A stretch of 64,000 bases of DNA from Candidatus Woesearchaeota archaeon (GCA_964358765.1 CAYHPN010000001.1:91182-155181), one strand, 5' to 3'; numbered from the stretch's first letter, positions 1-64,000 are shown. The notes: generated by a model not told the origin, from the letters alone. Made by a program: numbers and translations.

Positions 1-108
1 CTCAACAGTAATTGTGTACTTCTCATTATCTGCTACCATTGTTGCTGCAACAGTCAAACTGCTAGATAATATTAAAAATAAGAATATAAAAACAACCCTC
101 TTATTCAT
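1..108 (-). CDS. N-terminal fragment of a secreted/membrane protein gene running off the window edge
   Basis: ATG at 108 on the minus strand, open in frame to position 1. MNKRVVFIFLFLILSSSLTVAA... looks like a signal peptide. Truncated, so absent from the ORF track. Confidence 0.35.
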   Translation of the reverse strand, partial: MNKRVVFIFLFLILSSSLTVAATMVADNEKYTITVE

Positions 109-220
109 GAAAAGATTTACAATTACCAACTTATAAACTTATTTATTTTTTTATCTTGTTTAATATTGTTAAAGTATATAGAAACAAAACAATTATAAAT
201 AAAATTTTTCTATATAATGC

Positions 221-988
221 ATGGGAAAAAGAGGACAGGTTACTATTTATGTAATTATAGCCATCGTTGTGGTTGCTTTAATTGTTTTAATATTTATGTT
301 TAAGCCTGAAGTTGAAAGTTTTTTTGGAAGTAATTTGGATCCAAATGCTTTTTTGAATGATAGATTAAAAACTCCATTGACTGAAGAAAAAGAATTTTTG
401 TCAAAACAAGGAGGATATATTGAACCTGAAGGATTTATACTTTACAAAGGAAATAAGATTAAATATTTATGCTATAATTCGCAATATTATTTACCGTGCA
501 AAGTTCAGCAGCCTATGATAAAACAGAAATTTGAAGAAGAATTAGCAAAATCTATGGAAAGCGATGTAAAAAATTCAATTATAGAATTGAAAAGTCAGCT
601 TGAAAGGAGAGGTTATGAAATCAGTGGAGGAAATAATATAAAGATTAGTACAGAAATGGCTCCAAACAAAGTAAAATTGATAATTGATAGCGAATTAAAA
701 ACAAAAAAAGGTGAAGAAACTAAAACCTATGAAAAGTTTGAGATTGAATTAAACAGTGAAATGTACTTTTTGTTAATGACTGCAACAAGCATCGTAGATT
801 TTGAATCAGCTTATGGAGATTCTGAGACCAGATTGTATTTATTATATTATCCTAACTTGGTTATTGAAAAAAATAAACTTGGAGATGGTTCTAAAATATA
901 CAAGTTGAAGGAAATAACTACAAATGAGGAATTTTATTTTGCATCTAGAAGTGTCGCTTGGCCTGGAGGTTTGGGGTTAACTGCTTAA
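221..988 (+). CDS. membrane-anchored exported protein with class III (prepilin-like) signal peptide; function unknown
   Basis: N-terminus MGKRGQVTIYVIIAIVVVALIVLIFMF has basic residues, then G|Q, then a long hydrophobic helix, as in archaeal type IV pilin-like precursors. TATA-like ATTATAAATA lies about 20 nt upstream of the ATG. First gene of a co-directional cluster. Confidence 0.6.
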   Translation: MGKRGQVTIYVIIAIVVVALIVLIFMFKPEVESFFGSNLDPNAFLNDRLKTPLTEEKEFLSKQGGYIEPEGFILYKGNKIKYLCYNSQYYLPCKVQQPMIKQKFEEELAKSMESDVKNSIIELKSQLERRGYEISGGNNIKISTEMAPNKVKLIIDSELKTKKGEETKTYEKFEIELNSEMYFLLMTATSIVDFESAYGDSETRLYLLYYPNLVIEKNKLGDGSKIYKLKEITTNEEFYFASRSVAWPGGLGLTA

Positions 989-989
989 A

Positions 990-1271
990 ATGAATTTAAA
1001 TAGATTAAATTTTAAAAAAGAGGAAAATTGGGGATTTATTAGTCTTGCAGCAGGAATTATATCTATTCCATTGATATTTTTATTTCCAGTTTCAATAATA
1101 GTTTCCTTTATTGGTTTAGTTATTGGGCTGATTTATATGTTGAATAATAGAGGTTTTGGATGGGATGAGGAAAAAAAATTAGCCTTGTTTGGAACAATTG
1201 TTAATGTTTTATCTATAATTATAAATATAGCCTTAGTTTCATTTAAATTATTAATGAAAAAGTATTGGTGA
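990..1271 (+). CDS. small two-TM membrane protein
   Basis: Starts 1 nt after the previous stop. Has two long hydrophobic segments (GFISLAAGIISIPLIFLFPVSIIVSFIGLVIGLIYM and LFGTIVNVLSIIINIALVSF). Confidence 0.5.
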   Translation: MNLNRLNFKKEENWGFISLAAGIISIPLIFLFPVSIIVSFIGLVIGLIYMLNNRGFGWDEEKKLALFGTIVNVLSIIINIALVSFKLLMKKYW

Positions 1272-1278
1272 ACGACAA

Positions 1279-3216
1279 ATGATAAAAGAAAAGAAAATAA
1301 CAGCAATGTTGAAAATTAATCTTGTAATTGTATTTGCATTATTATTGGCTAATATAGATTATGTTAGTGCTCAAGGATTAACAAATACTGAGAAAGTTGG
1401 AATAAATGATGTGACAATATGCTGTGAGAAGACCAAATCCGGCCTATACTGCCAGGATGTAAAAGAAGAACAGTGTGCACAGGGAAGCAGAATGCCAAAG
1501 ACCTCATGTGAATCAACATCATTTTGTAAGGGAGGATTCTGTTATGATTCAATTGAAGGAACATGTTTAGATAATGTACCTCAAAAGGTTTGCAATGATA
1601 ATGGAGGAACTTGGAGTGAAGAGAAACCTGCACAATGCAATCTAGGATGCTGCGGGCTAAATGATCAAGCATCCTTTGTAACATTAGTAAGATGTAAAAG
1701 ATTAAGTGCATTCTATGGACTTCAAACTGATTGGAATTCTGAAATAACAAATGAAGCTCAGTGCATTTTAGGAGCAGGATTAAAAGAAAAAGGGGCGTGC
1801 GTGTTTACACAAGACTTTGATAAAACTTGCAAATTAACTACAAAAGAACAATGCACTCCAGATATAATAGGAAGTGCAATAAATGTTCCAGTTGAAATTA
1901 AGAATAAAAATTTAGAAGGATTGCAACCGAGCGGGGCTAGAAATATTGCTCCAAATTTTACCAATGCAAGTGAAATTAAAACAAGTCCAGGAAATGAAAC
2001 TGGAGTAGAATTTTTCCCAGGCAAATTATGTTCAGATGAAACTTTGGGGACAAACTGCGGACCTACAAAAGATACTATTTGTGTTGAAGGGAAAGAAGAA
2101 GTTTATTTTGTTGATACCTGCGGAAACCCTGCAAATATATATGATTCAAAAAAAGTGAATAATAAAGAATATTGGGCAAATATAGTTGATAAGAAAGATT
2201 CATGCAATTCCAATTCTGCAAATGAGAATGGAGTTGATTGCGGGAATTGCAATTATCTTTATGGAAGCTATTGTAGAGCTACGAGTACTTCGACAACTAA
2301 ACCTAAGTATGGAACTAATATCTGCCAGAGTTTAAATTGTAAGGATCCTCAAACTGGAGAAAAAAGATTGCATGGAGAAAGCTGGTGCGTATATGATGTT
2401 AATGGATACGATTTTGCACCAAAAGATACCGCAGCTAAGAACTATGTTCAAACAGAACTTGCTGAACAGTTAAGTAAAAGAGTCAGCGCCTCTTCATCTA
2501 ATCTTGCAAAAGGCGCTGGGCTAGGAAATGCTATACTTGCGGGAGCTGCTGGACCTGTGGGAAGTAAATTCTATAGGGAAATTTGCATAAATGGAGTAGT
2601 ACAGACAGAACCATGTGCAGATTTTAGACAGGAAGAATGTTTAGAAAATGTTTTAGACACCCCTGTAGGGAAGTTTTCTGAAGCAGCATGTAGAGTTAAC
2701 AGATGGCAGGACTGTACAGCACAAAGAAAGATGACTGATTGTCTAAACACTGATAGAAGAGATTGTACATGGATGGAAGGAATACAATATATTTTAATGG
2801 GCGCAATGATGAATGGATCTTCTTTAGATACAAATTCTTTGGCTAGTGTTAAAGAAAGAGTTAAAGCAGAGATAGATTCTGCTGGTGGAAAAGAATACTT
2901 GCCTAGGGGCGCATGCGTTCCAAAGAATCCTCCTGGATTAAAATTCTGGGGAGGCGAAGAAGCAAAAACTGTTTGCGCTCAGGCTAATGCATTGTGCCCT
3001 GTGACTTATTCCAAAGGATTGTTAGATAAAGAGTATAAATGTGTGAGCAACTGCCAATGCGATCCTAAAGAAAATCCTAGAATTGTTGCTGAAAGAGCAC
3101 AAGTTTGCATGGCTTTAGGCGATTGCGGACCAAAAGTAAATTATGTTGGAGATATTGGATATAAGAAAGGATATGAAATTAAGCAGAAAAAGATAGGTGA
3201 TGATAGTAAGAAATAG
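1279..3216 (+). CDS. large cysteine-rich secreted protein (43 Cys in 645 aa), function unknown
   Basis: N-terminal signal peptide (LKINLVIVFALLLANIDYVSA|QG). I counted 43 cysteines spread along the chain. Antisense ORFs 1364-1750 and 1758-2024 are spurious shadows. Confidence 0.75.
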   Translation: MIKEKKITAMLKINLVIVFALLLANIDYVSAQGLTNTEKVGINDVTICCEKTKSGLYCQDVKEEQCAQGSRMPKTSCESTSFCKGGFCYDSIEGTCLDNVPQKVCNDNGGTWSEEKPAQCNLGCCGLNDQASFVTLVRCKRLSAFYGLQTDWNSEITNEAQCILGAGLKEKGACVFTQDFDKTCKLTTKEQCTPDIIGSAINVPVEIKNKNLEGLQPSGARNIAPNFTNASEIKTSPGNETGVEFFPGKLCSDETLGTNCGPTKDTICVEGKEEVYFVDTCGNPANIYDSKKVNNKEYWANIVDKKDSCNSNSANENGVDCGNCNYLYGSYCRATSTSTTKPKYGTNICQSLNCKDPQTGEKRLHGESWCVYDVNGYDFAPKDTAAKNYVQTELAEQLSKRVSASSSNLAKGAGLGNAILAGAAGPVGSKFYREICINGVVQTEPCADFRQEECLENVLDTPVGKFSEAACRVNRWQDCTAQRKMTDCLNTDRRDCTWMEGIQYILMGAMMNGSSLDTNSLASVKERVKAEIDSAGGKEYLPRGACVPKNPPGLKFWGGEEAKTVCAQANALCPVTYSKGLLDKEYKCVSNCQCDPKENPRIVAERAQVCMALGDCGPKVNYVGDIGYKKGYEIKQKKIGDDSKK

Positions 3217-3282
3217 AATCTTAATTTTAACAACTTCCCAGTAATAGCAACATTTAAAAAGTATGAAAGAACTCTCTTTTTT

Positions 3283-3915
3283 ATGAATAAATCATCAAAT
3301 TTGATATCTAGCGGACTGATTGGAATAGTAGCGGGGGCTGGTATTTTATTGAATGGATGCGGAGATCCTAAAAAAACCGGTCCGGAACTATTACAAATAG
3401 TTATGGGCGTGAATGCAAGGGGGAACAGGAACTTAACACATGAGCAGAGAGCTTTTCTTCTAACAGGTGAAAAATATTTGAGAGATGAAAGAAGAAATCG
3501 GGCAATTGAAAGAAGCGGAACGACTATTATTTATAATAATCCAGTTGAGCAAGAAATGGAATTTAATCCCGACCAAAAATATTTATTTTTTGTTGGTAAA
3601 GATATCCCTGATTTTAGCAGTATTGAAGAAGATAATTACTTAGAAAATCCTCAGTTGAATAGAAGACATTTAAAATATAATGAACCTGTTTTATTGGGGG
3701 ATCTTATTTTTAATTGTCCTGGAAAAAAGGCAGAGATTGTATTACTAACTCCAAGCGGGAGAGAATTAAAATTTGGTAAACAAAATATAAGATTAAATAA
3801 ACATCCGCACTACATCAATTTAGATCCTGATCAAATTGAGAAGGGAAGAAATACTCTTAGAGGCTATATAAATGGCAGGGAAGTTTGCGAATTTGATTTT
3901 TATATTAAAGAATAG
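3283..3915 (+). CDS. putative lipoprotein, function unknown
   Basis: N-terminus SSGLIGIVAGAGILLNGCGDP has a lipobox-like L-N-G-C. Its own TATA-like CATTTAAAAAG lies about 22 nt upstream. Confidence 0.6.
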   Translation: MNKSSNLISSGLIGIVAGAGILLNGCGDPKKTGPELLQIVMGVNARGNRNLTHEQRAFLLTGEKYLRDERRNRAIERSGTTIIYNNPVEQEMEFNPDQKYLFFVGKDIPDFSSIEEDNYLENPQLNRRHLKYNEPVLLGDLIFNCPGKKAEIVLLTPSGRELKFGKQNIRLNKHPHYINLDPDQIEKGRNTLRGYINGREVCEFDFYIKE

Positions 3916-3955
3916 TTTTCAAAATATTTATAAGCATTAATTATCTGATTTATTG

Positions 3956-6127
3956 ATGAATAAGAGGGGCAGTAATTATCGTATTTATAATGTGGCAATT
4001 ATGCAAATGTTTTTATTGTTCTTATCTCTTTTTGCTTTCTCTTTTTTTATTTCTGAAATTGAATTAGCTAGTGCATTAGATGCAACTCCCGTAGGAGATC
4101 CAAAATTTGGCGGGGGAGTCGGTTTAACAAATGAACCGCCACCATCAGTAACTACGACTGCTGCAAAAACAACAACGGAAACAGCAGCAGCTGAATCCCG
4201 AGGAATATTTGATATTATTGGAGATATTTACGGAGGAGACGCATTCGCTGTTGAAGCTGGTGCTGAAGGGGGATTTACTTCCGGATTAAATTCAATAATT
4301 GGAGGAGCAGCTTGGGGGTTCACAGTTTATTTTGGTGTTAAAATGATCGGAAAATTGTTTGGCCTTGATAAGCCTTTAGTTGATTCATTATCTGCTGCTG
4401 CAGGTCTAGGGGTTGGAGCAGGAGTTACTGCAAGTTATCTTGTGAGTAATGGGGTATTGGGAAGCACTGTAGCTGGAGCACCGCAGATTTGGGGGATGAG
4501 CGCTAATGCATTTGGTGCTGTAGTTGGTATAGGAGTAGGTGTAGCTGTTTTACTTTTAACATATAAGAAAGAAAAAAGAGAAGTAATAAGCTTTGAGTGT
4601 TTGCCTTGGGAACCTCCACTAGGAGGAGAGAAATGCGACCAGTGCAATGATCCTATTAAACCATGTACAGAGTATAGATGCAAAAGCCTTGGACAAGGGT
4701 GCGAAATAATAAATCAAGGAACTGAACAAGAAATGTGCTTTTGGAAGAACAAAGGAGATACTCGGGCGCCAAAGATTAATACAGATAAAAATAAATTTAA
4801 ACCACAAGGATTAGAATTTAGACCTGATGCTGCAATAAGCATGCCCAATACTGGATTTAAAATAATTGATCCTAAAGCAAATAATGGATGTATTGAAGCT
4901 TTTACTAAACTTGAATTTGGAATAACAACAAATGAACCTGCACAATGCAGAATAGATTATGAACTTACCAAGACATATGATGAAATGGCATATTTATTTG
5001 GAGAGAGCAATTATTTTGATTATAATCATACTCAACAATTGAAAATTCCTGATCCTGCAAATACTGTTGGAGTTCCTATACTGTATACAAAGAAAAATGG
5101 AGTAAATACCATGACTTTATATGCTAGATGCATTGATGGAAACGGAAACGGAGGAAATTCAGGAGCTGTAGCATTTAGTTTCTGTGTAAAAGAGGGACCT
5201 GATACTTCGCCGCCAGTAGTTGAAGGCGGTTCAATAGACAGTGGGAGTTTTGTACAATTTAATGCAGATAAAGTACCGTATGAACTATATACAAATGAAA
5301 TTAGTGAATGTAAATGGAGTAGACTAGATAAAGCATTTGAGGACATGGAGAATACTATGAGTTGTGCAAATCAAGTTGAACAAATAAATGCAAATTTAGA
5401 TTATGTTTGTTCAACTGAACTGACTGGAATAAAGAATGATTTTGACAATAAATTTTATTTTAGATGCAAAGACTTGCCTGGGAAAGCAGAAAAAGATAGG
5501 AATGTAATGTCCACAAGTTTCCCATTGACTCTGAAAGGAACAAAGAATACTCTAGCAATAGAACAAGTCGGACCTAATGGTACAATCACTGGTGGAGAGA
5601 GTGTAGTGGGAGTAAATCTAGTTGTTAAGACATCTTTTGGAGTTGAAGATGGTAAAGCAGTTTGCGCATATTCCTTAGAAGAAAATGATTTAGCAAATTA
5701 CATAGATATGGATGAGACTGACAATTATTTGCATAACCAGACTCAATTCTTACCTCAAGGAAGTTATAAATACTTCTTCAAGTGTGTGGATGCTGGAGGA
5801 AATCTTGCTAGTGCGTCGACTTCGTTTATTGTAAAAACTGATACTGCTGAACCTTTAATCGCAAGAATATTTAGAGATGGATCAAGTATGAAAATAATTA
5901 CAAATGAAGATGGAGGTTGCGTATACTCTCTGAATTCCTGCAGTTATGATTATGAAAGCGGAACTGGATTTGTATATGATACTTCAGCTTCTGGAGGATT
6001 CAATAAAAAAGTACATTATACTGATTGGGATACATCTAAGACTTATTATATTAAATGTCAGGACATAAATGGAAAGAAACCACGATCAGATAAGTGCAGT
6101 GCAGTTATACAGGGAAGTGAGCTTTAG
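3956..6127 (+). CDS. large surface protein: signal peptide, Thr-rich linker, Gly/Ala-rich hydrophobic region, Cys-knot segment and four tandem ~100-aa Cys-containing repeats
   Basis: The track starts at TTG 3953; ATG 3956 lies 25 nt after TATA-like ATATTTATA. Repeat units are recognisable around CRIDYELTKTYDEM...YARCIDGNGN, CKWSRLDKAFEDM...YFRCKDLPGK, CAYSLEENDLANY...FFKCVDAGGN and CVYSLNSCSYDYE...YIKCQDINGK. Confidence 0.75.
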   Translation: MNKRGSNYRIYNVAIMQMFLLFLSLFAFSFFISEIELASALDATPVGDPKFGGGVGLTNEPPPSVTTTAAKTTTETAAAESRGIFDIIGDIYGGDAFAVEAGAEGGFTSGLNSIIGGAAWGFTVYFGVKMIGKLFGLDKPLVDSLSAAAGLGVGAGVTASYLVSNGVLGSTVAGAPQIWGMSANAFGAVVGIGVGVAVLLLTYKKEKREVISFECLPWEPPLGGEKCDQCNDPIKPCTEYRCKSLGQGCEIINQGTEQEMCFWKNKGDTRAPKINTDKNKFKPQGLEFRPDAAISMPNTGFKIIDPKANNGCIEAFTKLEFGITTNEPAQCRIDYELTKTYDEMAYLFGESNYFDYNHTQQLKIPDPANTVGVPILYTKKNGVNTMTLYARCIDGNGNGGNSGAVAFSFCVKEGPDTSPPVVEGGSIDSGSFVQFNADKVPYELYTNEISECKWSRLDKAFEDMENTMSCANQVEQINANLDYVCSTELTGIKNDFDNKFYFRCKDLPGKAEKDRNVMSTSFPLTLKGTKNTLAIEQVGPNGTITGGESVVGVNLVVKTSFGVEDGKAVCAYSLEENDLANYIDMDETDNYLHNQTQFLPQGSYKYFFKCVDAGGNLASASTSFIVKTDTAEPLIARIFRDGSSMKIITNEDGGCVYSLNSCSYDYESGTGFVYDTSASGGFNKKVHYTDWDTSKTYYIKCQDINGKKPRSDKCSAVIQGSEL

Positions 6128-6631: not shown

Positions 6632-7414
6632 ATGGGTGATTTAAAATTTATACATAAAGTATCTAAGGGAAGCAGGTTTAATCAGATTTATGTACCTTTA
6701 GATTATTCAAATGAATTTGAAGTTGGAGATTTTGTAGAAGTAAAATTATTAAAGAAACAAATAAAAATTTTTTATTCCGAATCAATGGAGAAATTAAATG
6801 AATTTAAAGAAAAACTGATAAAAGACATCTTTAATTTTTTAAAGAAATATCATGAAATTGAGCAAGTTTATATTTTTGGTTCTTTTTTATCAAAAAGAGA
6901 GGATTATAATGACATCGATGTTCTCATTATATCTGAAAATGAAAAATTAGATAATGAAATTTATGAGGAACTTGTAGAGAAATTCAATTTAAAATTTCAT
7001 GTTATTACCATTAGTATGGATAAGTTAGAAGTCCAGATTAAAATAGATCCAATGTTTAGAAACATTATTTATACTTCTGTCTCCAATAAAGAGATTATTA
7101 ATTTACCTCAAAGAAAAGTAGATAAAAACCACATCCAATTTTTCTTAATGTATCCAGAAGATTCTATAAAAGTAAATCTAGAAAGCAGTAGTTACTACAA
7201 TGCTATAAGAAAGGTATTTGTAATTGAATGCTTCTTAAGAAAGAAAGAAATTAGCTCTGAAGATATGAAAAAAGAGATTATTTCGAAGCTTAATCCAGAT
7301 ATTTATAAAAAAATTATAAATAATGAAATTCTCAGAAAAGAGGAATTAGATAAAATAAAAAAAGTTATTTCCAATAAGCTAAGAAATATATACCTTTTGC
7401 TAAAAAATGAATAA
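6632..7414 (+). CDS. nucleotidyltransferase-domain protein (MNT/pol-beta superfamily) with a small N-terminal beta-rich domain
   Basis: Has the canonical G-S-x10-D-x-D motif (YIFGSFLSKREDYNDIDVLIISE). The N-terminal segment (SRFNQIYVPLDYSNEFEVGDFVEVKLL) resembles AbrB/SpoVT-type DNA-binding folds. Confidence 0.65.
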   Translation: MGDLKFIHKVSKGSRFNQIYVPLDYSNEFEVGDFVEVKLLKKQIKIFYSESMEKLNEFKEKLIKDIFNFLKKYHEIEQVYIFGSFLSKREDYNDIDVLIISENEKLDNEIYEELVEKFNLKFHVITISMDKLEVQIKIDPMFRNIIYTSVSNKEIINLPQRKVDKNHIQFFLMYPEDSIKVNLESSSYYNAIRKVFVIECFLRKKEISSEDMKKEIISKLNPDIYKKIINNEILRKEELDKIKKVISNKLRNIYLLLKNE

Positions 7415-7721
7415 ACAAAAAACAATTTCAGAACTTACAACTTTCTTAGCTTATGCTGTCTCCCACAGAATAGGAAGCATTGTTAATAAAGATGAAATCT
7501 ATGCAGATAAATACCGAAAAGAGCCAGAAGAATTTATGAAAAAAGCAAAAATTATATCTTTTACGCAAAACTGGAATGAATATGATAAAATTATAATTAA
7601 AGAAAAATTTAGAAAAAATGTAGAAAGCGAATTAACTAGAAAAAATTTTCTTAATAATAGAAAATTTGAAATAATGGATGAAGAAATTGATAAATGTCTA
7701 AATGAATTGAATTTATTATAA
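7407..7721 (+). CDS. hypothetical helical protein overlapping the nucleotidyltransferase gene (possible cognate partner)
   Basis: 8-nt overlap with the upstream gene suggests translational coupling. I saw no RxxxxH HEPN motif, so no HEPN call. Confidence 0.4.
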   Translation: MNKQKTISELTTFLAYAVSHRIGSIVNKDEIYADKYRKEPEEFMKKAKIISFTQNWNEYDKIIIKEKFRKNVESELTRKNFLNNRKFEIMDEEIDKCLNELNLL

Positions 7722-13680: not shown

Positions 13681-14616
13681 TTACATCCCAAATGCAAATA
13701 ACAATGCATATAAAATTGCTACAATGATAAACATGCTGTATTCGGTATAGCGATGAATCTTATCTACGAGTTCCTTTTTCTTAAAATCCTGTAATTTTAG
13801 CATTATTACATTTAAGCCGAAACTAAGTAAGACTATTAAATAAGTCAAGACCATGAACTTATCTGCAAACGTAAGATAGCCTACGGGAGGAATTTGATTA
13901 CTTATTGAAATATGAAACATTACGCAAGCAACTAGTGCAGAACCTGCCATAGTTAAACGTGTAAGGATTTTATCAGTATCTAAGAAAAAACCTGTAAGCA
14001 TTACTAATAAAATAAAAATAACGGGGAGAAATGTTTTTAGGATTGAATTAATTTTTATTCTCTCTATTGGAATTGTTAAAACATATTGAGAATACGATTC
14101 ATCATAGACAATGTAGTCGTGCTCTCTTTCTTCTGCCGTCCATTGACCTAGAGACCAACCTGTAAAAGTAATAGACTCGTCAATTCCAGTCTCCTCATTA
14201 TTTGGAACATATATTAAAGTATCTCTTGTTGACTTTTTATCTTCTATAATGATCTGCATTTCTTGCCTATCAAAAGGAAAACTCCTTAAATTAACTGGGG
14301 AATTTAAGTTTGCCTGAATTCTATAAAACTTTTCGTTGTCTTCATCTATAATTTTTTCCATACTCGAAGCTCTGCCATTCATGAATTCAAAATCAAAAGG
14401 AGGACATTTTTCTTCGCATTGAAAATCTAGATAAAAATCTGCAGTGAATGAGCCTGTTGCAATGTCAAACTTTCCTAAATTTAGTAAGTAAAGGCCGACT
14501 TGGACTTCGCTAGTTTCTTCACTTTGTGGAGGAGTTGGCTCTAATGCTTTAGAGAATGAAATTAATTGCATTGCTAAAATAAGTAATATTAATATTGAAA
14601 TTATATTTTTTCTCAT
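13681..14616 (-). CDS. pentameric ligand-gated ion channel (Cys-loop receptor superfamily) homolog
   Basis: Signal peptide, then an extracellular beta domain with VQVGLYLLNLGKFDIATGSFTADFYLDF and the hallmark FPFDRQEMQIIIED (FPFD-x-Q). Four C-terminal TM helices follow, with an M2-like RLTMAGSALVACVMFHISISNQIP. Confidence 0.7.
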   Translation of the reverse strand: MRKNIISILILLILAMQLISFSKALEPTPPQSEETSEVQVGLYLLNLGKFDIATGSFTADFYLDFQCEEKCPPFDFEFMNGRASSMEKIIDEDNEKFYRIQANLNSPVNLRSFPFDRQEMQIIIEDKKSTRDTLIYVPNNEETGIDESITFTGWSLGQWTAEEREHDYIVYDESYSQYVLTIPIERIKINSILKTFLPVIFILLVMLTGFFLDTDKILTRLTMAGSALVACVMFHISISNQIPPVGYLTFADKFMVLTYLIVLLSFGLNVIMLKLQDFKKKELVDKIHRYTEYSMFIIVAILYALLFAFGM

Positions 14617-23341: not shown

Positions 23342-26137
23342 ATGAAAGACATTGTAATAAGAGGCGCTAGAGAACATAACCTAAAGAACGTTAATGTAAC
23401 GTTACCTAGAGATAAATTTATTGTAATTACTGGGTTGTCTGGTTCTGGAAAGTCTACTTTAGCCTTTGATACTCTTTACGCAGAAGGGCAGAGAAGATAT
23501 GTGGAGTCTCTGAGTGCGTATGCAAGGCAGTTTTTAGGCCTGATGAACAAGCCGGACGTGGATTCCATTGATGGACTTAGTCCTGCAATATCAATTGAAC
23601 AGAAAACCACTTCTAATAATCCAAGAAGTACTGTTGGGACTGTTACAGAGATATTTGATTATCTAAGACTGCTTTATGCAAGAATTGGAGTGCCTCATTG
23701 TCCAGAACATAAAATAAAGATTGAAGCTCAGACAGCAGAGCAAATTGCTAGTAGACTTGGAAAAGAAATATCTGGGGAGATGACTATTCTTGCACCAATA
23801 GTGAGAAAGAAAAAAGGAACATATGAAACTTTAATTAAAGATTTGGGTAAAGAAGGATATTCTAAAGTAAGAGTAAATGGAAAAGTGTACAGAACTGACG
23901 AAACAATAAAACTTGATAGATATAGAATGCATGACATTGAAGCAGTAATAGATAAGGTTTCTGGAAAAGATCAGTCGCGATTAAATGAAGCAGTAGAAGC
24001 AGGACTAAAAAAAGGGAGAGGGTTAATTATTATCGTTGATTCGAAAGATAAAGATCATTTATATTCTTCTGCAATGGCTTGCCCTATTTGCGGAATGTCT
24101 TTTGAGGAATTGCAGCCAAGAATGTTCTCATTTAACAGCCCGTTTGGAGCATGTGAAGAATGCAAGGGCCTAGGAGTAAAAATAGAATTTGATCCCAAAC
24201 TAATTTTACCAGATAAAAAGAAAAGCATCATGGATGGGGGGATCGCATTATACGGAAAAATGGATTTAAGCTGGAGAGGGCAGCAAATGCAAGTTATAGG
24301 GAAGAAATATGGATTTACACTTTTTATGCCTTTAGAAAAATTCAGCAAAAAACAAATGGAAGTTTTATTATATGGAACTGATGAAACTCTCAGAGGTAGA
24401 TGGTCAACGGGTGCGGAAATGAATTTTTCCGGCGGTTGGGAAGGACTTATACCGCAGTCAGATAGATTGTATAAGAAAACAGAATCTGACTGGAGGAGAA
24501 AAGAATTTGAGAAATTTATGAGGTCTTCTCCATGTTTATCATGCAAGGGAAAAAGACTAAAAGATAAAGTTTTGGGAGTTACTGTAAGGAATAGATCGAT
24601 AATAGATATAACTGATTTATCTGTTAAAAATTGTTTAGAATTTTTTGAGAGTATTGTACTAACAAAAAAAGAAGAAGAAATAGCTAAATTAATATTAAAA
24701 GAAATAAACTCTAGGTTGAAATTTTTGCTTGATGTTGGTTTAGGTTATTTGAATTTATCCAGACAAGCTGGAACATTATCTGGAGGTGAAGCGCAGAGAA
24801 TTAGACTAGCAACACAGATAGGATCAAATCTAATGGGTGTTCTTTATATTTTAGATGAACCTTCTATTGGACTACATCAGAGAGATAATGTAAAACTAAT
24901 TGAGACATTGCATAAACTGCGAGATTTAGGGAATACATTAGTCGTTGTTGAACATGATGAAGACACGATAAGGAGAGCGGATTATGTGGTTGACATGGGG
25001 CCTGGGGCAGGAACGCATGGGGGGGAGATAATTGCGGTAGGAACACCTGAAGAAATATACAAAAATCCTAAATCTTTAACTGGAAAATATCTATCTGGGA
25101 AATTAGGAATTCCTATTCCAGAAAAAAGAAGAGAAAGCAAAGGATCGATAATTTTTAAGGGATGTACCGAGAATAATTTGAAAAATATAGATATTAAAAT
25201 TCCCACTAGCATAATAACTTGCCTCACAGGAGTATCTGGAAGCGGGAAATCTACACTTTTAGAAGAAATTATTTACAAAGGACTAATGAAAAATATTCAC
25301 GAATCTAGTGTTATTCCAGGAAAACATAAGTCGATAGAAATGAATGCTGAAATTGATAAAGTAATTGTAATAGATCAAAGTCCAATTGGAAGGACACCAA
25401 GAAGCAATCCTGCAACATATATTAAAGCATTTGACGAAATAAGAAATTTATTTGCTTCAACTAAAGAAGCAAAGATGAAAGGTTACGGACCAGGAAGATT
25501 TTCATTTAATGTTGAGGGAGGAAGATGCGAGAAATGTTTTGGAGATGGTACAATAAAAATCGAGATGAATTTCCTGCCTGATGTCTATGTTGAATGTGAA
25601 GAATGTAAAGGGAAGAGATATAATAAAGAAACTTTGAATATTACTTACAAAGATAAATCTATTGCAGATGTACTGGACATGACAGTTGAAGAATCTCTTT
25701 TAGTATTTGAGGCAGTTCCTCTAATACAAAGAAAACTAGCCACGCTAGTAGAAGTCGGGCTAGGATATATTAAAGTAGGGCAGAGCGCAACAACATTATC
25801 TGGTGGAGAGGCACAGAGAATAAAACTCACAAGAGAATTATCCAAGAGAGGAACTGGAAAAACAATGTACTTACTTGATGAACCTACAACAGGACTTCAT
25901 TTCCATGACATTATTAAATTACTTGACGTATTACATGGGCTTGTGGATAAAGGAAATACAATATTGATTATTGAACATAATCTTGAAGTCATTAAGTCTG
26001 CAGATCACATCATAGATTTAGGTCCAGAGGGAGGAGAGGGAGGAGGAGAAATAATATTTGAAGGCACTCCTGAAGAGATCATTAAAAACAATAAAAGTTT
26101 TACTGGGAAATTCCTTAAAGATGTTATGAAAAAATAA
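23342..26137 (+). CDS. uvrA: excinuclease ABC subunit A
   Basis: Two ABC ATPase modules (GLSGSGKST and GVSGSGKST Walker A; LSGGEAQR signatures twice) plus zinc-finger Cys clusters. 931 aa. Confidence 0.95.
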   Translation: MKDIVIRGAREHNLKNVNVTLPRDKFIVITGLSGSGKSTLAFDTLYAEGQRRYVESLSAYARQFLGLMNKPDVDSIDGLSPAISIEQKTTSNNPRSTVGTVTEIFDYLRLLYARIGVPHCPEHKIKIEAQTAEQIASRLGKEISGEMTILAPIVRKKKGTYETLIKDLGKEGYSKVRVNGKVYRTDETIKLDRYRMHDIEAVIDKVSGKDQSRLNEAVEAGLKKGRGLIIIVDSKDKDHLYSSAMACPICGMSFEELQPRMFSFNSPFGACEECKGLGVKIEFDPKLILPDKKKSIMDGGIALYGKMDLSWRGQQMQVIGKKYGFTLFMPLEKFSKKQMEVLLYGTDETLRGRWSTGAEMNFSGGWEGLIPQSDRLYKKTESDWRRKEFEKFMRSSPCLSCKGKRLKDKVLGVTVRNRSIIDITDLSVKNCLEFFESIVLTKKEEEIAKLILKEINSRLKFLLDVGLGYLNLSRQAGTLSGGEAQRIRLATQIGSNLMGVLYILDEPSIGLHQRDNVKLIETLHKLRDLGNTLVVVEHDEDTIRRADYVVDMGPGAGTHGGEIIAVGTPEEIYKNPKSLTGKYLSGKLGIPIPEKRRESKGSIIFKGCTENNLKNIDIKIPTSIITCLTGVSGSGKSTLLEEIIYKGLMKNIHESSVIPGKHKSIEMNAEIDKVIVIDQSPIGRTPRSNPATYIKAFDEIRNLFASTKEAKMKGYGPGRFSFNVEGGRCEKCFGDGTIKIEMNFLPDVYVECEECKGKRYNKETLNITYKDKSIADVLDMTVEESLLVFEAVPLIQRKLATLVEVGLGYIKVGQSATTLSGGEAQRIKLTRELSKRGTGKTMYLLDEPTTGLHFHDIIKLLDVLHGLVDKGNTILIIEHNLEVIKSADHIIDLGPEGGEGGGEIIFEGTPEEIIKNNKSFTGKFLKDVMKK

Positions 26138-27950: not shown

Positions 27951-29555
27951 ATGGTAAAGACAAATGAACTAGCCCATCTTCCTACTGAATCTGGATGCTA
28001 TTTATTTAGAGATGAGAATGGAGAAGTGCTCTATGTTGGAAAGGCAAAGAATCTTAAGAAGAGAATATGCAATTACTTTCAGAAAAAGGAACTGGATAAA
28101 GAGAATTCTGATAGTTATTCTATAAATAGCCAGAATTCTCTAATGGACAATTCTGAAAAACAAATACTGTCTAACAGAATTATCCATAGCAAGACAGTAC
28201 TTTTAGTTACACAAATAAAAGATATTGATTTTATTGTAACTAAAAATGAACTGGAAGCACTTTTATTAGAAAATAATCTAATAAAAAAACATTATCCAAA
28301 ATATAATATTGATCTGAAGGATTCAAGAAGATATGCTTATATTTTAATCCATGAGGGTGATGTTCAATGGTTAGAAGTTGTAAGAAAAAGAGAGGTCAGA
28401 GGAGAGTATTATGGGCCGTTTGTTTCTGGGCAATATAGGAAAATAATTTTAGAAGTCTTAGAAAGAAATTTTAGAGTATTAACTAGGAGGCCTTCTCCAA
28501 GATTAAGTAAAGCGATAGAAAAAGAAGGATATTATGAAAGAGTTAGACAAGCAAGACAGATATTAAAGGGAAATGTTGATGAACTGATCGATGAGCTCAA
28601 AGAAAAAATGAAAGAATCTTCATCTAAAACATATTATGAATATGCTTTAACATTGAAAAATCAGATTGAAGCCCTTGAAAGCTTGAAAGAAAAACAGGTA
28701 ATGGAATTAACAAGATCTGTAGATGCACACATAATAAACTATAGAGTTATGGGTGATGAAGTATATTTACTTTTATTTTTTATTCGAAAAGGAGTATTAG
28801 AAGAAAAACAGGCATATAATTTTACATATTATGATGACTTCTTGAACGATTTTTTAATTCAGTATTATGATAGTGCACCTATTCCCAAAGAAATTATAGT
28901 TCCTCACGAAGTTGATGAAGCACTAGTAGATTATCTCTCTACCAAAGAAAACAGAAATGTTTCTATAATAGTACCTAAACAGGGCGATAAGAAAGATTTA
29001 CTAGACTTGGTTGGGCATAATATAACTCAGACATTTTTAGCAGGAAGTGAAAATATGACTGCATTAAAAGAGATATTGAAAATGGAAAAACTTCCTAAAG
29101 TAATCGAATGTTTTGATATTTCACATTTATCTGGAACAAATACTGTTGCATCAATGGTTACTTTTAAGGATGGTTTTGCGGATAAAGAGCATTATAGGAA
29201 ATTTAAAATTCGTCTTGCTAATGAGAATGATGATTATTATGCTATCGAGCAAGTAGTGAGAAGAAGATATTCTGGAAGTTTGACAAAAACATTGAGGAGT
29301 CCCGATTTGATTGTTATAGATGGAGGTTTAGGGCAACTCGGAGTCGCACTCAAAGTATTAAAAGAACTAAATATTAAAATTCCAATTATTTCAATAGCGA
29401 AGAAATTTGAGGAAATTTATATTTCTGGAAAGAATCAACCCTTGAGAATTGATAAGAAGAATAAGGGTTTGCAGTTGTTACAATCTATTAGAGATGAAGC
29501 GCATAGATTTGCATTGACTTATCAGAGATTATTGAGGACAAGAGAACTAAGATAA
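27951..29555 (+). CDS. uvrC: excinuclease ABC subunit C
   Basis: GIY-YIG N-terminus (GCYLFRDENGEVLYVGKAKNLKKRICNYF), a UVR-like region and a C-terminal endonuclease domain (DGGLGQL...EAHRFA). Confidence 0.9.
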   Translation: MVKTNELAHLPTESGCYLFRDENGEVLYVGKAKNLKKRICNYFQKKELDKENSDSYSINSQNSLMDNSEKQILSNRIIHSKTVLLVTQIKDIDFIVTKNELEALLLENNLIKKHYPKYNIDLKDSRRYAYILIHEGDVQWLEVVRKREVRGEYYGPFVSGQYRKIILEVLERNFRVLTRRPSPRLSKAIEKEGYYERVRQARQILKGNVDELIDELKEKMKESSSKTYYEYALTLKNQIEALESLKEKQVMELTRSVDAHIINYRVMGDEVYLLLFFIRKGVLEEKQAYNFTYYDDFLNDFLIQYYDSAPIPKEIIVPHEVDEALVDYLSTKENRNVSIIVPKQGDKKDLLDLVGHNITQTFLAGSENMTALKEILKMEKLPKVIECFDISHLSGTNTVASMVTFKDGFADKEHYRKFKIRLANENDDYYAIEQVVRRRYSGSLTKTLRSPDLIVIDGGLGQLGVALKVLKELNIKIPIISIAKKFEEIYISGKNQPLRIDKKNKGLQLLQSIRDEAHRFALTYQRLLRTRELR

Positions 29556-35123: not shown

Positions 35124-37082
35124 ATGGGAGTATTCAAGATTGTTGCGCCATTCAAACCTGCGGGAAGTCAGCCTCTTGCTATTAAGGAACTAAGTGAAGG
35201 AATACAAAAGGGAATAAAGATGCAGACATTGCTGGGAGTTACGGGAAGCGGGAAGACATTTTCTGTCGCGCATGTGATTGAAAATGTGCAGAAGCCGACT
35301 CTTGTGATTGCACATAATAAGACGCTGGCTGCGCAACTGTATAGAGAGTTTAAAGAGTTTTTTCCTGAGAATAGAGTTGAATATTTTATTTCATTTTATG
35401 ATTATTATCAGCCAGAGAGTTATATGCCTGCTAAAGATCAGTATATTGAGAAAGACTCGCAGATTAATCCGCTTATTGAGAGAATGAGACTGAGTGCTTC
35501 TGCATCGCTGATGAGCAGAAAAGATGTGATTGTTGTTGCTTCTGTGAGTTGTATTTATGGAATCGGCAACCCAAAAAACTTTCTTGGAATGGGAGTTGAT
35601 TTTTCTAAGAAAGCGAAAGTGAGCAGGTCGGAAATTATGTCGAAGTTAATTGATATTCAGTATGAGAGAAACGATATTGAATTATTATCTGGGAGATTTA
35701 GAGTAAAAGGAGAGGTGATCGATATTGTTCCTGGATATGAAAAAGATATCTTGCGAATTGAACTAGATGGAGAGAGTGTTGAGCGAGTAAGTATTATTGA
35801 TAAGATAACTGGGAAAGTATTGCAACTCTTAGATCATTATTTTCTTTTTCCTGCAAGGCATTTTGTAACGGACGAAGAAAGTATGAAAACTGCACTGAAA
35901 AAGATTGAAGATGAACTTGCGGTGCAGTTGCTTAAATTGGGACTCATTGAAGCGCATAGATTGAAACAAAGAACGCAATATGATCTTGAGATGTTAAGGA
36001 CGATTGGATTTTGCAAGGGGATTGAAAATTATTCCAGACATTTTGACGGAAGGGAAGAAGGAGAGAAGCCGTATTGCTTGCTAGATTATTTTGGAGAAAA
36101 TTTTTTAATTGTAATTGATGAAAGCCACCAGACCATTCCACAACTTCATGCAATGTATAATGGGGACAGGCAGAGAAAACAAACATTAATAGATTATGGA
36201 TTTAGATTGCCTAGTGCACTTGATAATAGGCCATTAAAATTTGAAGAGTTTGAAGAGTATATGAAAAAGCAGCAAGTGGTTTTTGTAAGTGCGACCCCTG
36301 CAAAATATGAAAAAGAAAATTCGCAAAAAGTTGTTGAACAACTTATTAGACCTACAAATTTAGTAGATCCTATAGTTGAAATAAGGCCTATTAAAGATCA
36401 AATGAATGATGTGATTAAGGAAATAGGTGCTGTAGTAAAAAGAGGCGATAGGGTGCTTGTGACAGCACTAACAAAAAAATTAGCGGAGGAGATTTCTGAT
36501 TTTTTTGCTTCGCAGGGAATAAAGACTAGATATTTGCATTCTGAAGTCAAGACTCTAGAGAGAACGGAGATAATAAGACAACTTCGAGTTGGGAAGTTTG
36601 ATGTGTTAGTTGGAATTAATCTACTTAGAGAGGGAATTGATATTCCTGAACTGGGACTTGTGATTATTTTAGATGCAGATAAAGAAGGATTTTTAAGAGA
36701 TCAACAGAGTTTGATACAGATTATTGGTCGCGCAGCTCGAAATGCAAATGCGAAAGTAATACTGTATGCTGATAAAAAGACGGATTCTATTATTGGAGCA
36801 TTGGCAGAGACTAAGAGAAGAAGAGAATTGCAGCTTGAGCATAATAGAAAACATGGACTTGTGCCTGTAACTATAAAGAAGACAATTGAGGAGCAATCCA
36901 TTATTATTAAAGATACTAAACATATTCCTAAGAAAGAAAAAGAGAATTTAGTAAAACAGTTAGAGAAGGAAATGCATGCAGCAGCTGAGGAACTTGATTT
37001 TGAACTTGCAATTGCACTGCGGGATCAATTGAGAGCGCTTGAGAAAGAATTAGGAATAAAGGAAGAAGTTAGTTTGAATTGA
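35124..37082 (+). CDS. uvrB: excinuclease ABC subunit B
   Basis: Helicase motifs (GVTGSGKT, DESH), a beta-hairpin region and the C-terminal UVR domain (ELDFELAIALRDQLRALE). Confidence 0.95.
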   Translation: MGVFKIVAPFKPAGSQPLAIKELSEGIQKGIKMQTLLGVTGSGKTFSVAHVIENVQKPTLVIAHNKTLAAQLYREFKEFFPENRVEYFISFYDYYQPESYMPAKDQYIEKDSQINPLIERMRLSASASLMSRKDVIVVASVSCIYGIGNPKNFLGMGVDFSKKAKVSRSEIMSKLIDIQYERNDIELLSGRFRVKGEVIDIVPGYEKDILRIELDGESVERVSIIDKITGKVLQLLDHYFLFPARHFVTDEESMKTALKKIEDELAVQLLKLGLIEAHRLKQRTQYDLEMLRTIGFCKGIENYSRHFDGREEGEKPYCLLDYFGENFLIVIDESHQTIPQLHAMYNGDRQRKQTLIDYGFRLPSALDNRPLKFEEFEEYMKKQQVVFVSATPAKYEKENSQKVVEQLIRPTNLVDPIVEIRPIKDQMNDVIKEIGAVVKRGDRVLVTALTKKLAEEISDFFASQGIKTRYLHSEVKTLERTEIIRQLRVGKFDVLVGINLLREGIDIPELGLVIILDADKEGFLRDQQSLIQIIGRAARNANAKVILYADKKTDSIIGALAETKRRRELQLEHNRKHGLVPVTIKKTIEEQSIIIKDTKHIPKKEKENLVKQLEKEMHAAAEELDFELAIALRDQLRALEKELGIKEEVSLN

Positions 37083-53162: not shown

Positions 53163-54521
53163 ATGAGAAGACCGAAATCACCCCCACAACAAAAAGAATT
53201 GCGAGAAATAGTCGGAGATAAAAAAAATCAATCGTTATTCGATTATATGGGTAATAAAGAGATTAACGCATTTATTAAAGAGATGAATAATAGATATTTG
53301 CATTGGGATGAATTTGTTTATAGAACCCCTCCAAATAATGCAGATAGGGAAATCGTATGGACTTTGATGAAGTTTAATAGAAATTCCGCTGCTAAAAAAA
53401 TTAAAATAAGTAATGAAGGAGAGTTTAGTTTCAAATTTAATTTGTTAGACAATATACAACAAAAGTTACATGAATTTGACATGAATTTAGGAGGAACTTT
53501 AGGGTCGGCACAGTTTATTCCACAAGAAGAAAAAAATAGATATCTGATAAATTCTATTATGGAAGAAGCGATTGCCTCTAGTCAATTAGAAGGGGCTTCT
53601 ACAACAAGGAAAGTAGCAAAAGAGATGTTAAGAACTGCGAGAAAACCAAAAAACAAATCTGAAAAAATGATTATGAATAATTATCTAACTGCTAAGATGA
53701 TAAAAGATTCGAATGTTAAAAAACTTACTCCTGAATTTATACTTGAAATACACAAAAGTATAACTAAAGATACTTTGGATGATAAGAGTTACGAAGGAAA
53801 GTTTAGAGACACCGACGATATTGTTGTAGTGGACGAATCTACTGGTGAAATTTCTTATCATCCGCCAAAGCATGAATTAATTAGCAAAGTAATTGAAGAA
53901 TTTTGTGACTTCGCTAATAAACCTAGCACTTATTTTATGCACCCAATAGTGAAAGCGTCTATTCTCCATTTTTTAATTGGCTATATTCACCCATTTGTCG
54001 ATGGAAATGGTAGAACGGCTAGGTCTCTTTTTTACTGGTATTTAACCAAAGAAGGATACTGGATAATTGAGTTTATGTCTATTTCTAGGATAATAATAAA
54101 ATCTCCATCTAAATATTCAAGAGCTTATCTCTATACAGAAACTGACGAAAACGATTTAACATATTTTCTCAACTATCAAATTAGAACAATAGATATAGCT
54201 TTACGAGAATTGAAAAATTACATCTCTAGAAAAATGAAGGAGAAAGAAACATTATTTAAAATTATAGATAAGATAGAGGGTCTTAACATTCGTCAAGCAA
54301 ATATGATTAAAATGCTTTATCAAGATGAAAGAAAAAGACTAACTATGAGGGAACTACAAGAAACATTTAACATAGTATATGAAACAGCCAGGAAAGACTT
54401 GTTAGATTTAGAGAATAGAGGTTTTATCGAAAGAAGATTAATTGGAAAACAAAAGCTAATCTTCATTCGTTCAAAGAAGTTTCATGACTTGATAAGTAAA
54501 CATCTAGAAAATATCGAGTAG
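53163..54521 (+). CDS. Fic/Fido-domain protein with a C-terminal winged-helix domain
   Basis: Canonical Fic motif HPFVDGNGRTARSL, with a wHTH-like tail (TMRELQETFNIVYETARKDLLDLENRGFIER). Confidence 0.85.
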   Translation: MRRPKSPPQQKELREIVGDKKNQSLFDYMGNKEINAFIKEMNNRYLHWDEFVYRTPPNNADREIVWTLMKFNRNSAAKKIKISNEGEFSFKFNLLDNIQQKLHEFDMNLGGTLGSAQFIPQEEKNRYLINSIMEEAIASSQLEGASTTRKVAKEMLRTARKPKNKSEKMIMNNYLTAKMIKDSNVKKLTPEFILEIHKSITKDTLDDKSYEGKFRDTDDIVVVDESTGEISYHPPKHELISKVIEEFCDFANKPSTYFMHPIVKASILHFLIGYIHPFVDGNGRTARSLFYWYLTKEGYWIIEFMSISRIIIKSPSKYSRAYLYTETDENDLTYFLNYQIRTIDIALRELKNYISRKMKEKETLFKIIDKIEGLNIRQANMIKMLYQDERKRLTMRELQETFNIVYETARKDLLDLENRGFIERRLIGKQKLIFIRSKKFHDLISKHLENIE

Positions 54522-63091: not shown

Positions 63092-63489
63092 ATTTTTTAA
63101 AGAAAAAAATTAAGATTAAGATCAAAATTAAATAAATTTTAGCATCTAATAGTATGTTATGAACCGACGAACTGAGCCACAAGGTTTAAAAACTAACGAA
63201 ACTGAGATTTTTTACTCAAAAGAATAATTTGGGGGCTAAAATCGTAATCGAAAATATAAAAATCATAAATCATACTCACTTCAGTGGGAAATATGGCGCT
63301 TTATCTTCGATAAAGTGTCATTCAGAGATAATATTCAATGATGTAAGCAGGAAGACAAGTAATACAAAAAATATTTGTTAAAACAAATGTTTTTTAGATA
63401 ATTCTTAAAGGATTTTAATTAATCGTAAGAATTATCTTCAAGGTATAATAATAAACAATAATTCCATTAGAATTATTATTTCAGAAGAA

Positions 63490-64000
63490 ATTTGATCTTA
63501 TACACTACTAGACGAATAGCTTGGTTTGGGTTGTGATGATAGACGCGGCAAGCTGCGATAAGCTTGGGGGAGCTGCATGCGAGCTTTGAACCCAAGATTT
63601 CTTAATGCGAGAACGTTTTCGCGAGAAAATGCCGAGAGGCAGATGTACGCTGGGAATTGAAACATCTTAGTACCAGCAGGAAAAGAAAACAATAGTGATT
63701 CCCTAAATAGCAGCGAGCGAAAGGGGAAGAGAGCAAACTGAATCTCCGTTGGAAACGACGGTAGAGATGTGGTGGAGCTTAAGCCTAAATTGTCGAAAAG
63801 AAGTTTTCTGGAAAGAGGCGCCTTAGAAGGTGATAGCCCTGTATTTGAAGACAATATGGTATGCTCTAAGAGAGTAGGGCTCCTTAGATAGGGAGTCTGA
63901 ATATGGCAAGATTAATTGCTAACTCTAAATATAAACCCAAGTCCGATAGCAAACTAAGTACCGCGAGGGAAAGCTGAAAAGTACCCATAATAGGGGGTTA
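63490..64000 (+). rRNA. rrl: 23S rRNA, 5' portion (continues beyond the window)
   Basis: Conserved LSU domain I strings are present: ...GATGATAGACG...CTGCGATAAGC..., GGGAATTGAAACATCTTAGTACC, AGCGAGCGAAAGGGGAAGAGC and AGTACCGCGAGGGAAAGCTGAAAAGTACC. The start is estimated by alignment to the E. coli 5' end from memory, +/- 15 nt. Confidence 0.85.

Follow-up and report, generated by a model that had tools for sequence, protein, structure and literature searches.

A cluster of five co-directional genes, here called P1 to P5, occupies positions 221 to 6127 of a 64,000-nucleotide (nt) stretch of Candidatus Woesearchaeota archaeon DNA (GCA_964358765.1, CAYHPN010000001.1:91182-155181; "the window"). 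The evidence supports the view that the cluster functions as a unit, with products that are exported or lie in the membrane. We give about even chances to the reading that the window carries a single copy ("module B") of an envelope cluster that is ancient and vertically inherited in Pacearchaeota and Woesearchaeota, and whose products form a multi-subunit complex in and on the cytoplasmic membrane. In such a complex, P5 would be anchored by an N-terminal helix and a Gly/Ala-rich, "glycine-zipper"-like bundle, and would bear a Cys-knot and a stalk of four immunoglobulin (Ig)-like units. P3 would be a disulfide-rich head that docks on P5, P1 a prepilin-type membrane-anchored subunit probably made together with P3, and P4 a lipid-anchored partner of P5 that may bind Ca2+ in most relatives, with P2 as a clade-specific small membrane protein. 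We infer that the products physically assemble with the Ig array outside the cell, as a constitutive surface "spike" for contact with cells or surfaces, and not as a filament or lattice. The function in adhesion or host contact proposed in an earlier reading of the DNA (the sequence-only reading) would be compatible with the evidence.

None of the five products matched a Pfam, NCBIfam, PHROGs or PDB-sequence family at threshold, in agreement with the earlier view that no enzymatic, pilus or S-layer domain is recognisable in them. A P1 profile had no match in the PDB, 60 members of the P1 family had none in Pfam, and a weak match of P5 to Syncytin-1 (E 0.15, PDB sequences) was dismissed as noise. 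No relatives of the cluster proteins were found on IMG/VR viral contigs, and in a literature search the families were not found described. All members of the P1, P3 and P5 families are "hypothetical" proteins, and they come from Pacearchaeota, Woesearchaeota and Nanoarchaeota. For P5, the homologs comprised more than 225 cluster representatives among 8,000 candidates scored, P3 had 1,614 homologs, and P1 had 164 in a word-indexed search and 5,148 representatives (50% identity, E <= 1e-3) in an exhaustive profile search. When one genome per species was scanned, P5 relatives were encoded in at least 567 stretches, a number that may count both of the paralogs described below and so corresponds to several hundred genomes. 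We rate the cluster as an undescribed system of a new kind. Synteny, a gene fusion and the null family searches together uphold the proposal that it is a functional unit of exported and membrane proteins outside the described pilus and S-layer families.

Conserved gene order and a P3-P5 fusion

Open reading frames (ORFs) were called in 84 fetched loci and classified by BLAST and by hidden Markov models built from our own alignments. The main architecture, P1a - (P3a~P5a fusion) - P1b - P3b - (P4) - P5b, was found in 34 loci, and about 16 further loci contain versions of it that are truncated at a flank. Incomplete forms of the order make up the majority of the remaining loci that had sufficient flanking sequence. 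The order P1, P3, P4, P5 is kept in most related Pacearchaeota and Woesearchaeota loci. As this order recurs in dozens of genomes that are about 40% identical, the cluster is more than a chance arrangement. The genes for Hjc and aspartyl-tRNA synthetase (AspRS) recur downstream of the cluster in relatives, as they do in the window, which points to a chromosomal location and vertical inheritance of the cluster. The synteny in related DPANN genomes that the sequence-only reading had proposed to look for is thus strong for P1-P3-(P4)-P5. The unit of five genes did not survive the comparison, since P2 is a clade-specific insert in the conserved system.

The a and b genes form two paralogous modules in tandem. 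In most relatives, the counterpart of the window cluster is the second half of this duplicated locus, and in module A the P3 and P5 parts are one protein of 1,230-1,500 amino acids (aa). In the related loci L003 and L004, the first ~570 residues of an upstream ~1,300-aa protein align with the P3 of the window and the last ~630 with its P5 (29-30% identity, E 1e-51 to 1e-69). Both copies are fused in a single locus, L074. Because they are fused in module A, P3 and P5 probably act together, and the fusion is the strongest evidence from the sequences that they may do so. The proteins of the window share 40-47% identity with P1b, P3b and P5b and about 29% with the A copies, which makes them B-type proteins. 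In most loci, the end of P1 overlaps or directly adjoins the start of P3 (4-nt overlaps are common), suggesting that their translation is coupled.

That the five genes are unrelated neighbours, with a run of export signals that is coincidental, appears extremely improbable. Such a reading would account for the lack of conservation of P2, for the possibility that P4 and P5 have their own promoters, and for six or seven loci in which P5 lies apart from P1 and P3, although in these a lipobox ORF is still found directly 5' of P5. However, it is contradicted by the gene order kept across genomes of ~40% identity, by the P3-P5 fusion and by the overlap of P1 with P3.

P2 was described earlier as a protein with two transmembrane (TM) segments. 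It has two hydrophobic stretches (aa 13-54 and 62-91), which probably form two to three TM helices. Its match to DUF4190 (PF13828) is below threshold (17.1 bits vs 35). A small TM ORF between P1 and P3 was found only in the window and in its closest relatives, L012 and L014, and the similarity of P2 to the L014 ORF is weak. P2 is a clade-specific insertion that lies outside the conserved core.

The rate of evolution was compared among the window, L003 and L004. P1, P3 and P5 (38-56% identity) diverge about as slowly as AspRS (43-59%) and TruB (52-59%); for P4, hardly any alignment was possible. A much faster rate is usual for surface adhesins and S-layer proteins. Conservation at the level of housekeeping proteins suggests a machine with constrained internal contacts.

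Several other genes accompany the cluster in relatives. The full locus opens in ~30 cases with a small DNA-binding gene that overlaps P1a (L003:1907-2092, L004:2410-2550 and equivalents) and encodes a protein of the FaeA-like winged-helix (PF04703) or the CopG ribbon-helix-helix (PF01402) type. This gene, which has no counterpart ahead of P1 in the window, is likely a dedicated regulator of the locus. Between P3 and P5, four relatives encode a glycosyltransferase of family 4 (MraY/WecA/AglH type, PF00953) (L064:8062-9066, L067:4647-5660, L070:1105-2115 and L078:7761-8771; Pfam E 5e-30 for the L067 copy), which hints at a link to glycoprotein biogenesis. Toxin-antitoxin genes of the MNT/HepT type are inserted between P1 and P3 in other relatives, as an MNT and HepT pair (L073:6542-7154) or as a single MNT gene (L005:5638-5946).

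The exported proteins P1, P3 and P4

P1 begins MGKRG/QVTIYVIIAIVVVALIVLIFMF, that is, M-G-K-R-G/Q followed by ~22 hydrophobic residues (nt 221-304; the slash marks the predicted processing site). In an alignment of 60 sequences that includes both paralogs, Q6 is invariant and K3 and G5 are at least 90% conserved. The conserved signal is K-[RK]-[GA]/Q with a hydrophobic helix directly after it. A strict class III pattern combined with a test for the hydrophobic tail was matched by 62/90 P1 ORFs and by 13/816 background ORFs. P1 thus has the sequence features that define a class III signal protein, and processing of its signal is predicted. The prepilin-like signal of the sequence-only reading is therefore conserved, with Q(+1) invariant. 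The globular part of P1 (~225 aa) has four conserved Cys and invariant E195 and R243. The P1 of the window retains C84 and C93 and lacks C48 and C119, which are otherwise at least 90% conserved, and their joint loss suggests that C48 and C119 form a pair, possibly a disulfide, in relatives.

The archaeal class III signal proteins include the sugar-binding proteins of the Sulfolobus bindosome and the EppA-type Methanococcus pilins, which have Gln at +1. P1 resembles them in its short basic N-terminus, the [KR][GA]/Q motif and the ~22 hydrophobic residues. It differs from them in that its locus has no gene for a filament ATPase, platform or peptidase, in its 225-aa globular domain without a Pfam or PDB relative, and in being present as one copy per module, coupled to a Cys-rich protein. 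P1 could be a minor pilin that presents P3 and P5 as an adhesin, in an accessory or tip complex of a type IV filament whose machinery is encoded at another site; this we consider very unlikely. The class III signal with Q at +1 would fit, as EppA-processed Methanococcus pilins have Q at this position. Type IV filament systems have been reported in DPANN genomes (bioRxiv 10.64898/2026.04.22.720090; PMC9938205). However, no prepilin peptidase and no filament ATPase or platform gene was found among the window ORFs scanned with Pfam or in the L003 and L004 gene tables, one P1 per module coupled to P3 suggests a 1:1 stoichiometry, and P5 has a membrane anchor of its own. Class III signals are also found on non-filament proteins, for example those that bind sugars in the Sulfolobus bindosome.

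P3 has a Sec-type signal (aa 1-32, ending DYVSA/QG) whose sequence is not conserved, as expected of a cleaved signal. Re-reading confirmed this signal and the 43 Cys counted earlier, and the alignment of homologs showed the Cys to be conserved (37 invariant and six near-invariant). The AlphaFold2 (AF2) model of P3 (predicted local distance difference test score, pLDDT, 80.3; predicted template modelling score, pTM, 0.63) had no significant Foldseek match in the PDB (best E 1.4) or in a viral library (best E 0.41), and the best of the non-significant resemblances were to small disulfide modules (FnI, TNFR). A variable surface loop of low confidence spans aa 202-238 (nt 1882-1992). Three homologs (P0132, P0145 and P0186) carry a cupredoxin domain (PF00127, 30-37 bits vs 21) at aa ~210-335, at about the position of this loop, and such an insertion would fit an exposed, extracytoplasmic loop.

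A viral or fusogenic origin of P3 was considered and found no support, as both Foldseek searches and the search of IMG/VR contigs were null. For the class II fusogen or fusexin fold (HAP2, EFF-1, Fsx1), there was no structure match at E <0.4 in the PDB or the viral library. The cluster is like HAP2/fusexin with FUS1, and like viral class I fusion proteins with Gly/Ala-rich fusion peptides, in that it encodes an exported protein rich in Cys along with an Ig-repeat protein and with hydrophobic segments rich in Gly/Ala. It differs from them in that P3 has no significant structural match, there is no heptad-repeat architecture in the cluster, and no relatives were found on viral contigs.

P4, previously read as a lipobox protein, has the lipobox AGILLNG-C26, the Cys of which is invariant in 15 homologs, and is predicted to be a lipid-anchored, putative lipoprotein. 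A lipobox ORF was found in 41/54 of the P3-to-P5 intervals. The P4 candidates fall largely into one BLAST cluster (43/54), with pairwise identity of only 13-22%. An EF-hand/dockerin-like loop (D-x-N-x-D-G-x-I...E), of which the P4 of the window has a degenerate form, and a beta-rich domain at the C-terminus are found in most homologs. From these comparisons, P4 appears to be a fast-evolving partner of P5.

P5 and its orientation in the membrane

The AF2 model of P5 (pLDDT 85.4) has disorder at residues 35-81, helices at 7-34, 108-134, 139-164 and 183-202, then the Cys-knot and an all-beta part (residues 264-723, pLDDT mostly >90). The Thr-rich linker, Gly/Ala-rich helices and Cys-knot segment noted before were re-read and placed in this layout (Table 1). 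The motif [YF]..[RK]C.D..G occurs at aa 389, 500, 606 and 697. The four tandem ~100-aa repeats of the sequence-only reading stand as far as the motif and the four beta-sandwiches are concerned, but the units are ~150, 98, 118 and 93 aa long and a BLAST self-comparison found no internal repeats, so that the repeat structure is drawn from the motif and the AF2 model, in which all four units are beta-sandwiches. All 21 Cys of P5 are invariant, with seven in the knot and 4, 4, 2 and 4 in the successive Ig units. Each unit has a pair of motifs, "...C.W/Y" and "Y..C.D..GN", that resembles the classical B/F-strand disulfide.

Among the 50 Foldseek matches listed for P5, there were only generic tandem Ig, FN3 and cadherin ectodomains (E ~1e-12 to 1e-8, low TM-scores). 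Precomputed matches of P5 homologs include the extracytoplasmic Ig families Big_13, Y_Y_Y and DUF4625, and about a third of the listed homologs have a Big_13 match. The P5 of the window (13.6 bits) and the L003 fusion (19.4 bits) both score below the Big_13 (PF19077) gathering cut-off of 27. P5 is similar to the Big_13 and HYR-like bacterial Ig adhesin domains, which have a D-x-x-G-N motif, in that its repeats end in Y.[FY][RK]C.D..GN...F.V and are modelled as beta-sandwiches. It differs from Big_13 in its sub-threshold score, in the B/F-type Cys pair found in all four units, and in the attachment to a membrane helical bundle.

We determined per-column hydrophobicity and charge for 70 P5 sequences. 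The N-terminus is rich in K/R and the first helix is conserved in sequence, so it is probably retained rather than cleaved. Next come a Thr-rich loop of acidic character and three hydrophobic helices, the last of which is followed by a conserved basic flank, YKKEKK. The third TM segment ("TM3") is weakly hydrophobic and has K/R at two positions in 20-30% of homologs; it may therefore not span the membrane, and the helix count is uncertain. The Cys pattern of the disulfide type, the Ig family matches and the weak "TM3" point to an extracellular Ig array, and we think it rather more probable that the array is outside the cell than inside.

Several observations weigh against the surface complex. 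The positive-inside rule predicts that P5 has its N-terminus inside, four helices and its C-terminus inside, which would make the Cys-knot and the Ig array cytoplasmic; in the fused paralog, the helices that separate the P3 part from the Ig part also appear to be odd in number. The slow rate of evolution is atypical for adhesins. The filament ATPase, platform and prepilin peptidase genes are missing, as described above, and module A was absent both for at least 7 kb upstream (L085) and elsewhere in the window. TATA-like boxes precede the starts of P4 and P5. On the side of an extracellular Ig array, the modal Cys numbers of P3 (43) and P5 (21) sum to that of the fusion (64), which would fit one inter-chain disulfide, but this parity argument is weak, as about half of such coincidences would arise by chance.

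The topology predicted for P5 would fit a different arrangement, in which the Ig array and Cys-knot are a cytoplasmic scaffold, P3, P1 and P4 an external receptor or capture head, and the P5 helices an oligomeric channel or signal-transmitting bundle of a trans-membrane machine for uptake of host molecules or for signalling. The charge pattern (conserved K/R flanks at both ends of a four-helix, N-in and C-in protein), the apparent odd helix number of the fused paralog, the small-xxx-small (glycine-zipper-like) motifs of the P5 helices and the housekeeping-like conservation would all fit. On the other hand, the invariant Cys of every Ig unit are even in number and sit at classical disulfide positions, which would be unexpected in the cytoplasm of a mesophile, the homologs match the extracytoplasmic Ig families, and the uncertainty about "TM3" extends to the helix count. 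We regard this arrangement as quite unlikely.

A second alternative places the Ig array outside, as we do, but in an S-layer or its anchor, in which the P5 Ig arrays and a P3 canopy would form the main protein lattice, held by the helices of P5 and P1 and by the lipid of P4. The known S-layer proteins of archaea are rich in Ig domains and have a membrane tether (Haloferax csg, Sulfolobus SlaA/SlaB). Like the S-layer glycoproteins of Haloferax volcanii (csg) and Sulfolobus (SlaA/SlaB), the cluster has a tandem array of beta-sandwich domains, a Thr-rich and possibly O-glycosylated linker beside the membrane anchor, and a partner anchoring protein. The lineage-wide presence in a housekeeping neighbourhood, the two paralogous modules, which could form a hetero-lattice, and the AglH/MraY-type glycosyltransferase gene between P3 and P5 in four loci would also be consistent with an S-layer. 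However, there was no match to any S-layer family in Pfam or NCBIfam, none among the 50 Foldseek matches listed for P5, and each protein has only 3-4 N-glycosylation sequons. The anchor of P5 is N-terminal, multi-helix and Gly/Ala-rich, unlike the C-terminal TM, lipid or PGF-CTERM anchors of S-layer proteins; conservation at the housekeeping level is unusual for such proteins, and a duplicated, coupled architecture of four components is atypical. On balance, we consider an S-layer unlikely.

Genomic setting and biological meaning

Re-reading of the ORFs and signals agrees with the earlier description of five co-directional genes on the + strand, each beginning with an export or membrane signal (Table 1). 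The intergenic gaps are 1, 7 and 66 nt, followed by 40 nt to the ATG of P5 or 37 nt to the in-frame TTG. In public gene calls P5 starts at the ATG (723 aa). A TATA-like box, TTATAAATA, lies ~24 nt 5' of the P1 ATG in this AT-rich genome and is a candidate promoter for a leaderless P1 transcript. Similar boxes are found ~24-27 nt 5' of the start codons of P1, P4 and P5; in a genome of 70% A+T they would be weak evidence either way. The co-directional run extends downstream, as a GNAT gene begins 12 nt past the P5 stop, although this gene is not conserved with the cluster in relatives. P1-P2-P3 are tightly packed, with gaps of 1 and 7 nt. Given the boxes before P4 and P5, a single transcript of all five genes, as in the "five-gene operon" of the sequence-only reading, would be only a possibility.

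Table 1. Coordinates of the gene cluster, the upstream intergenic region and the segments of P5 in the window
Feature	Position (nt)	Position in protein (aa)	Strand	Description
Divergent intergenic region	108-220			TATA-like box TTATAAATA at ~193-201
P1	221-988		+	255 aa; predicted class III (prepilin-type) signal and ~225-aa globular domain
P2	990-1271		+	93 aa; putative small multi-TM protein
P3	1279-3216		+	645 aa; Sec signal; 43 conserved Cys
P4	3283-3915		+	210 aa; lipobox protein, Cys26 at nt 3358-3360
P5	3956-6127 (ATG) or from 3953 (in-frame TTG)		+	723/724 aa; membrane protein
P5 N-terminal helix	3974-4057	7-34	+	Conserved
P5 linker	4058-4276	35-107	+	Thr-rich (PPPSVTTTAAKTTTETAAAE), disordered
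P5 Gly/Ala-rich helices	4277-4561	108-202	+	Three helices, then YKKEKRE
P5 Cys-knot	4592-4744	213-263	+	7 Cys
P5 Ig-like array	4745-6124	264-723	+	Four beta-sandwich units

The window is archaeal and has a large-subunit ribosomal RNA gene at 63488-64000. Its G+C content is ~30%, and the rest of it encodes housekeeping functions (Hjc, AspRS, TruB, UvrA/B/C and ribosomal proteins). The evidence supports the host as a small-genome DPANN archaeon of the Pacearchaeota/Woesearchaeota group, which agrees with the small-genome archaeon named in the sequence-only reading.

Upstream of P1, a divergent minus-strand gene starts at ~107 (MNKRVVFIFLFL...; window 1-107) and encodes a secreted protein of 373-380 aa, which was rejected as a P1 relative on comparison. 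Past this gene (L085:1-7012), an ORF of 52 aa has a pilin-like N-terminus (MKNKKASAWIWVIILIV...) and is followed by genes for a secreted protein of 532 aa, likewise with 43 Cys, and for a lipobox protein of 94 aa. The 532-aa protein was rejected as a relative of P3 (hhalign probability 11%). These upstream genes may represent another block of exported proteins, distinct from the cluster. On its other side, the cluster is closely followed by a nucleotidyltransferase gene (Polbeta/NTP_transf_2, 6632-7414) and an overlapping small ORF (7407-7721). Further along, a 311-aa ORF on the minus strand (13681-14616) has a sub-threshold match to the ligand-binding domain of neurotransmitter-gated (pentameric) ion channels (22 bits vs 26, E 1.3e-4). 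A complete set of bacterial-type UvrA, UvrC and UvrB genes is dispersed over 14 kb (23342-26137, 27951-29555 and 35124-37082), and these segments share a raised G+C (0.34-0.35) with P3 and P5. A 452-aa protein (53163-54521) has a Fic/DOC domain fused to a DeoR-like helix-turn-helix.

The genomes of Pacearchaeota and Woesearchaeota are very small, and these archaea are abundant and uncultured. They have been reported to lack lipid and amino-acid biosynthesis (PMC11537232). Beyond the surface complex that we favour, the cluster could encode a DPANN-specific machine in which the Gly/Ala-rich helices of P5, similar to fusion peptides or glycine zippers, and the disulfide-rich P3 head insert into or fuse with the membrane of a host, for scavenging of lipids or metabolites or as a cytoplasmic bridge. 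We give this a low probability, although a membrane-engaging machine would account for the housekeeping-level conservation, the two retained modules and the odd topology.

The cluster is a concrete candidate for a core envelope apparatus, as it occurs in several hundred species-level genomes in a housekeeping setting, evolves at a rate like that of a tRNA synthetase, is present as two modules and includes a 43-Cys protein without a detectable structural relative. P3, P5 and P1 are defined targets for cryo-electron tomography, proteomics, and labelling with antibodies or linked to fluorescence in situ hybridisation. Even if the cluster encodes only a structural coat, it would still be a new type of archaeal envelope protein.

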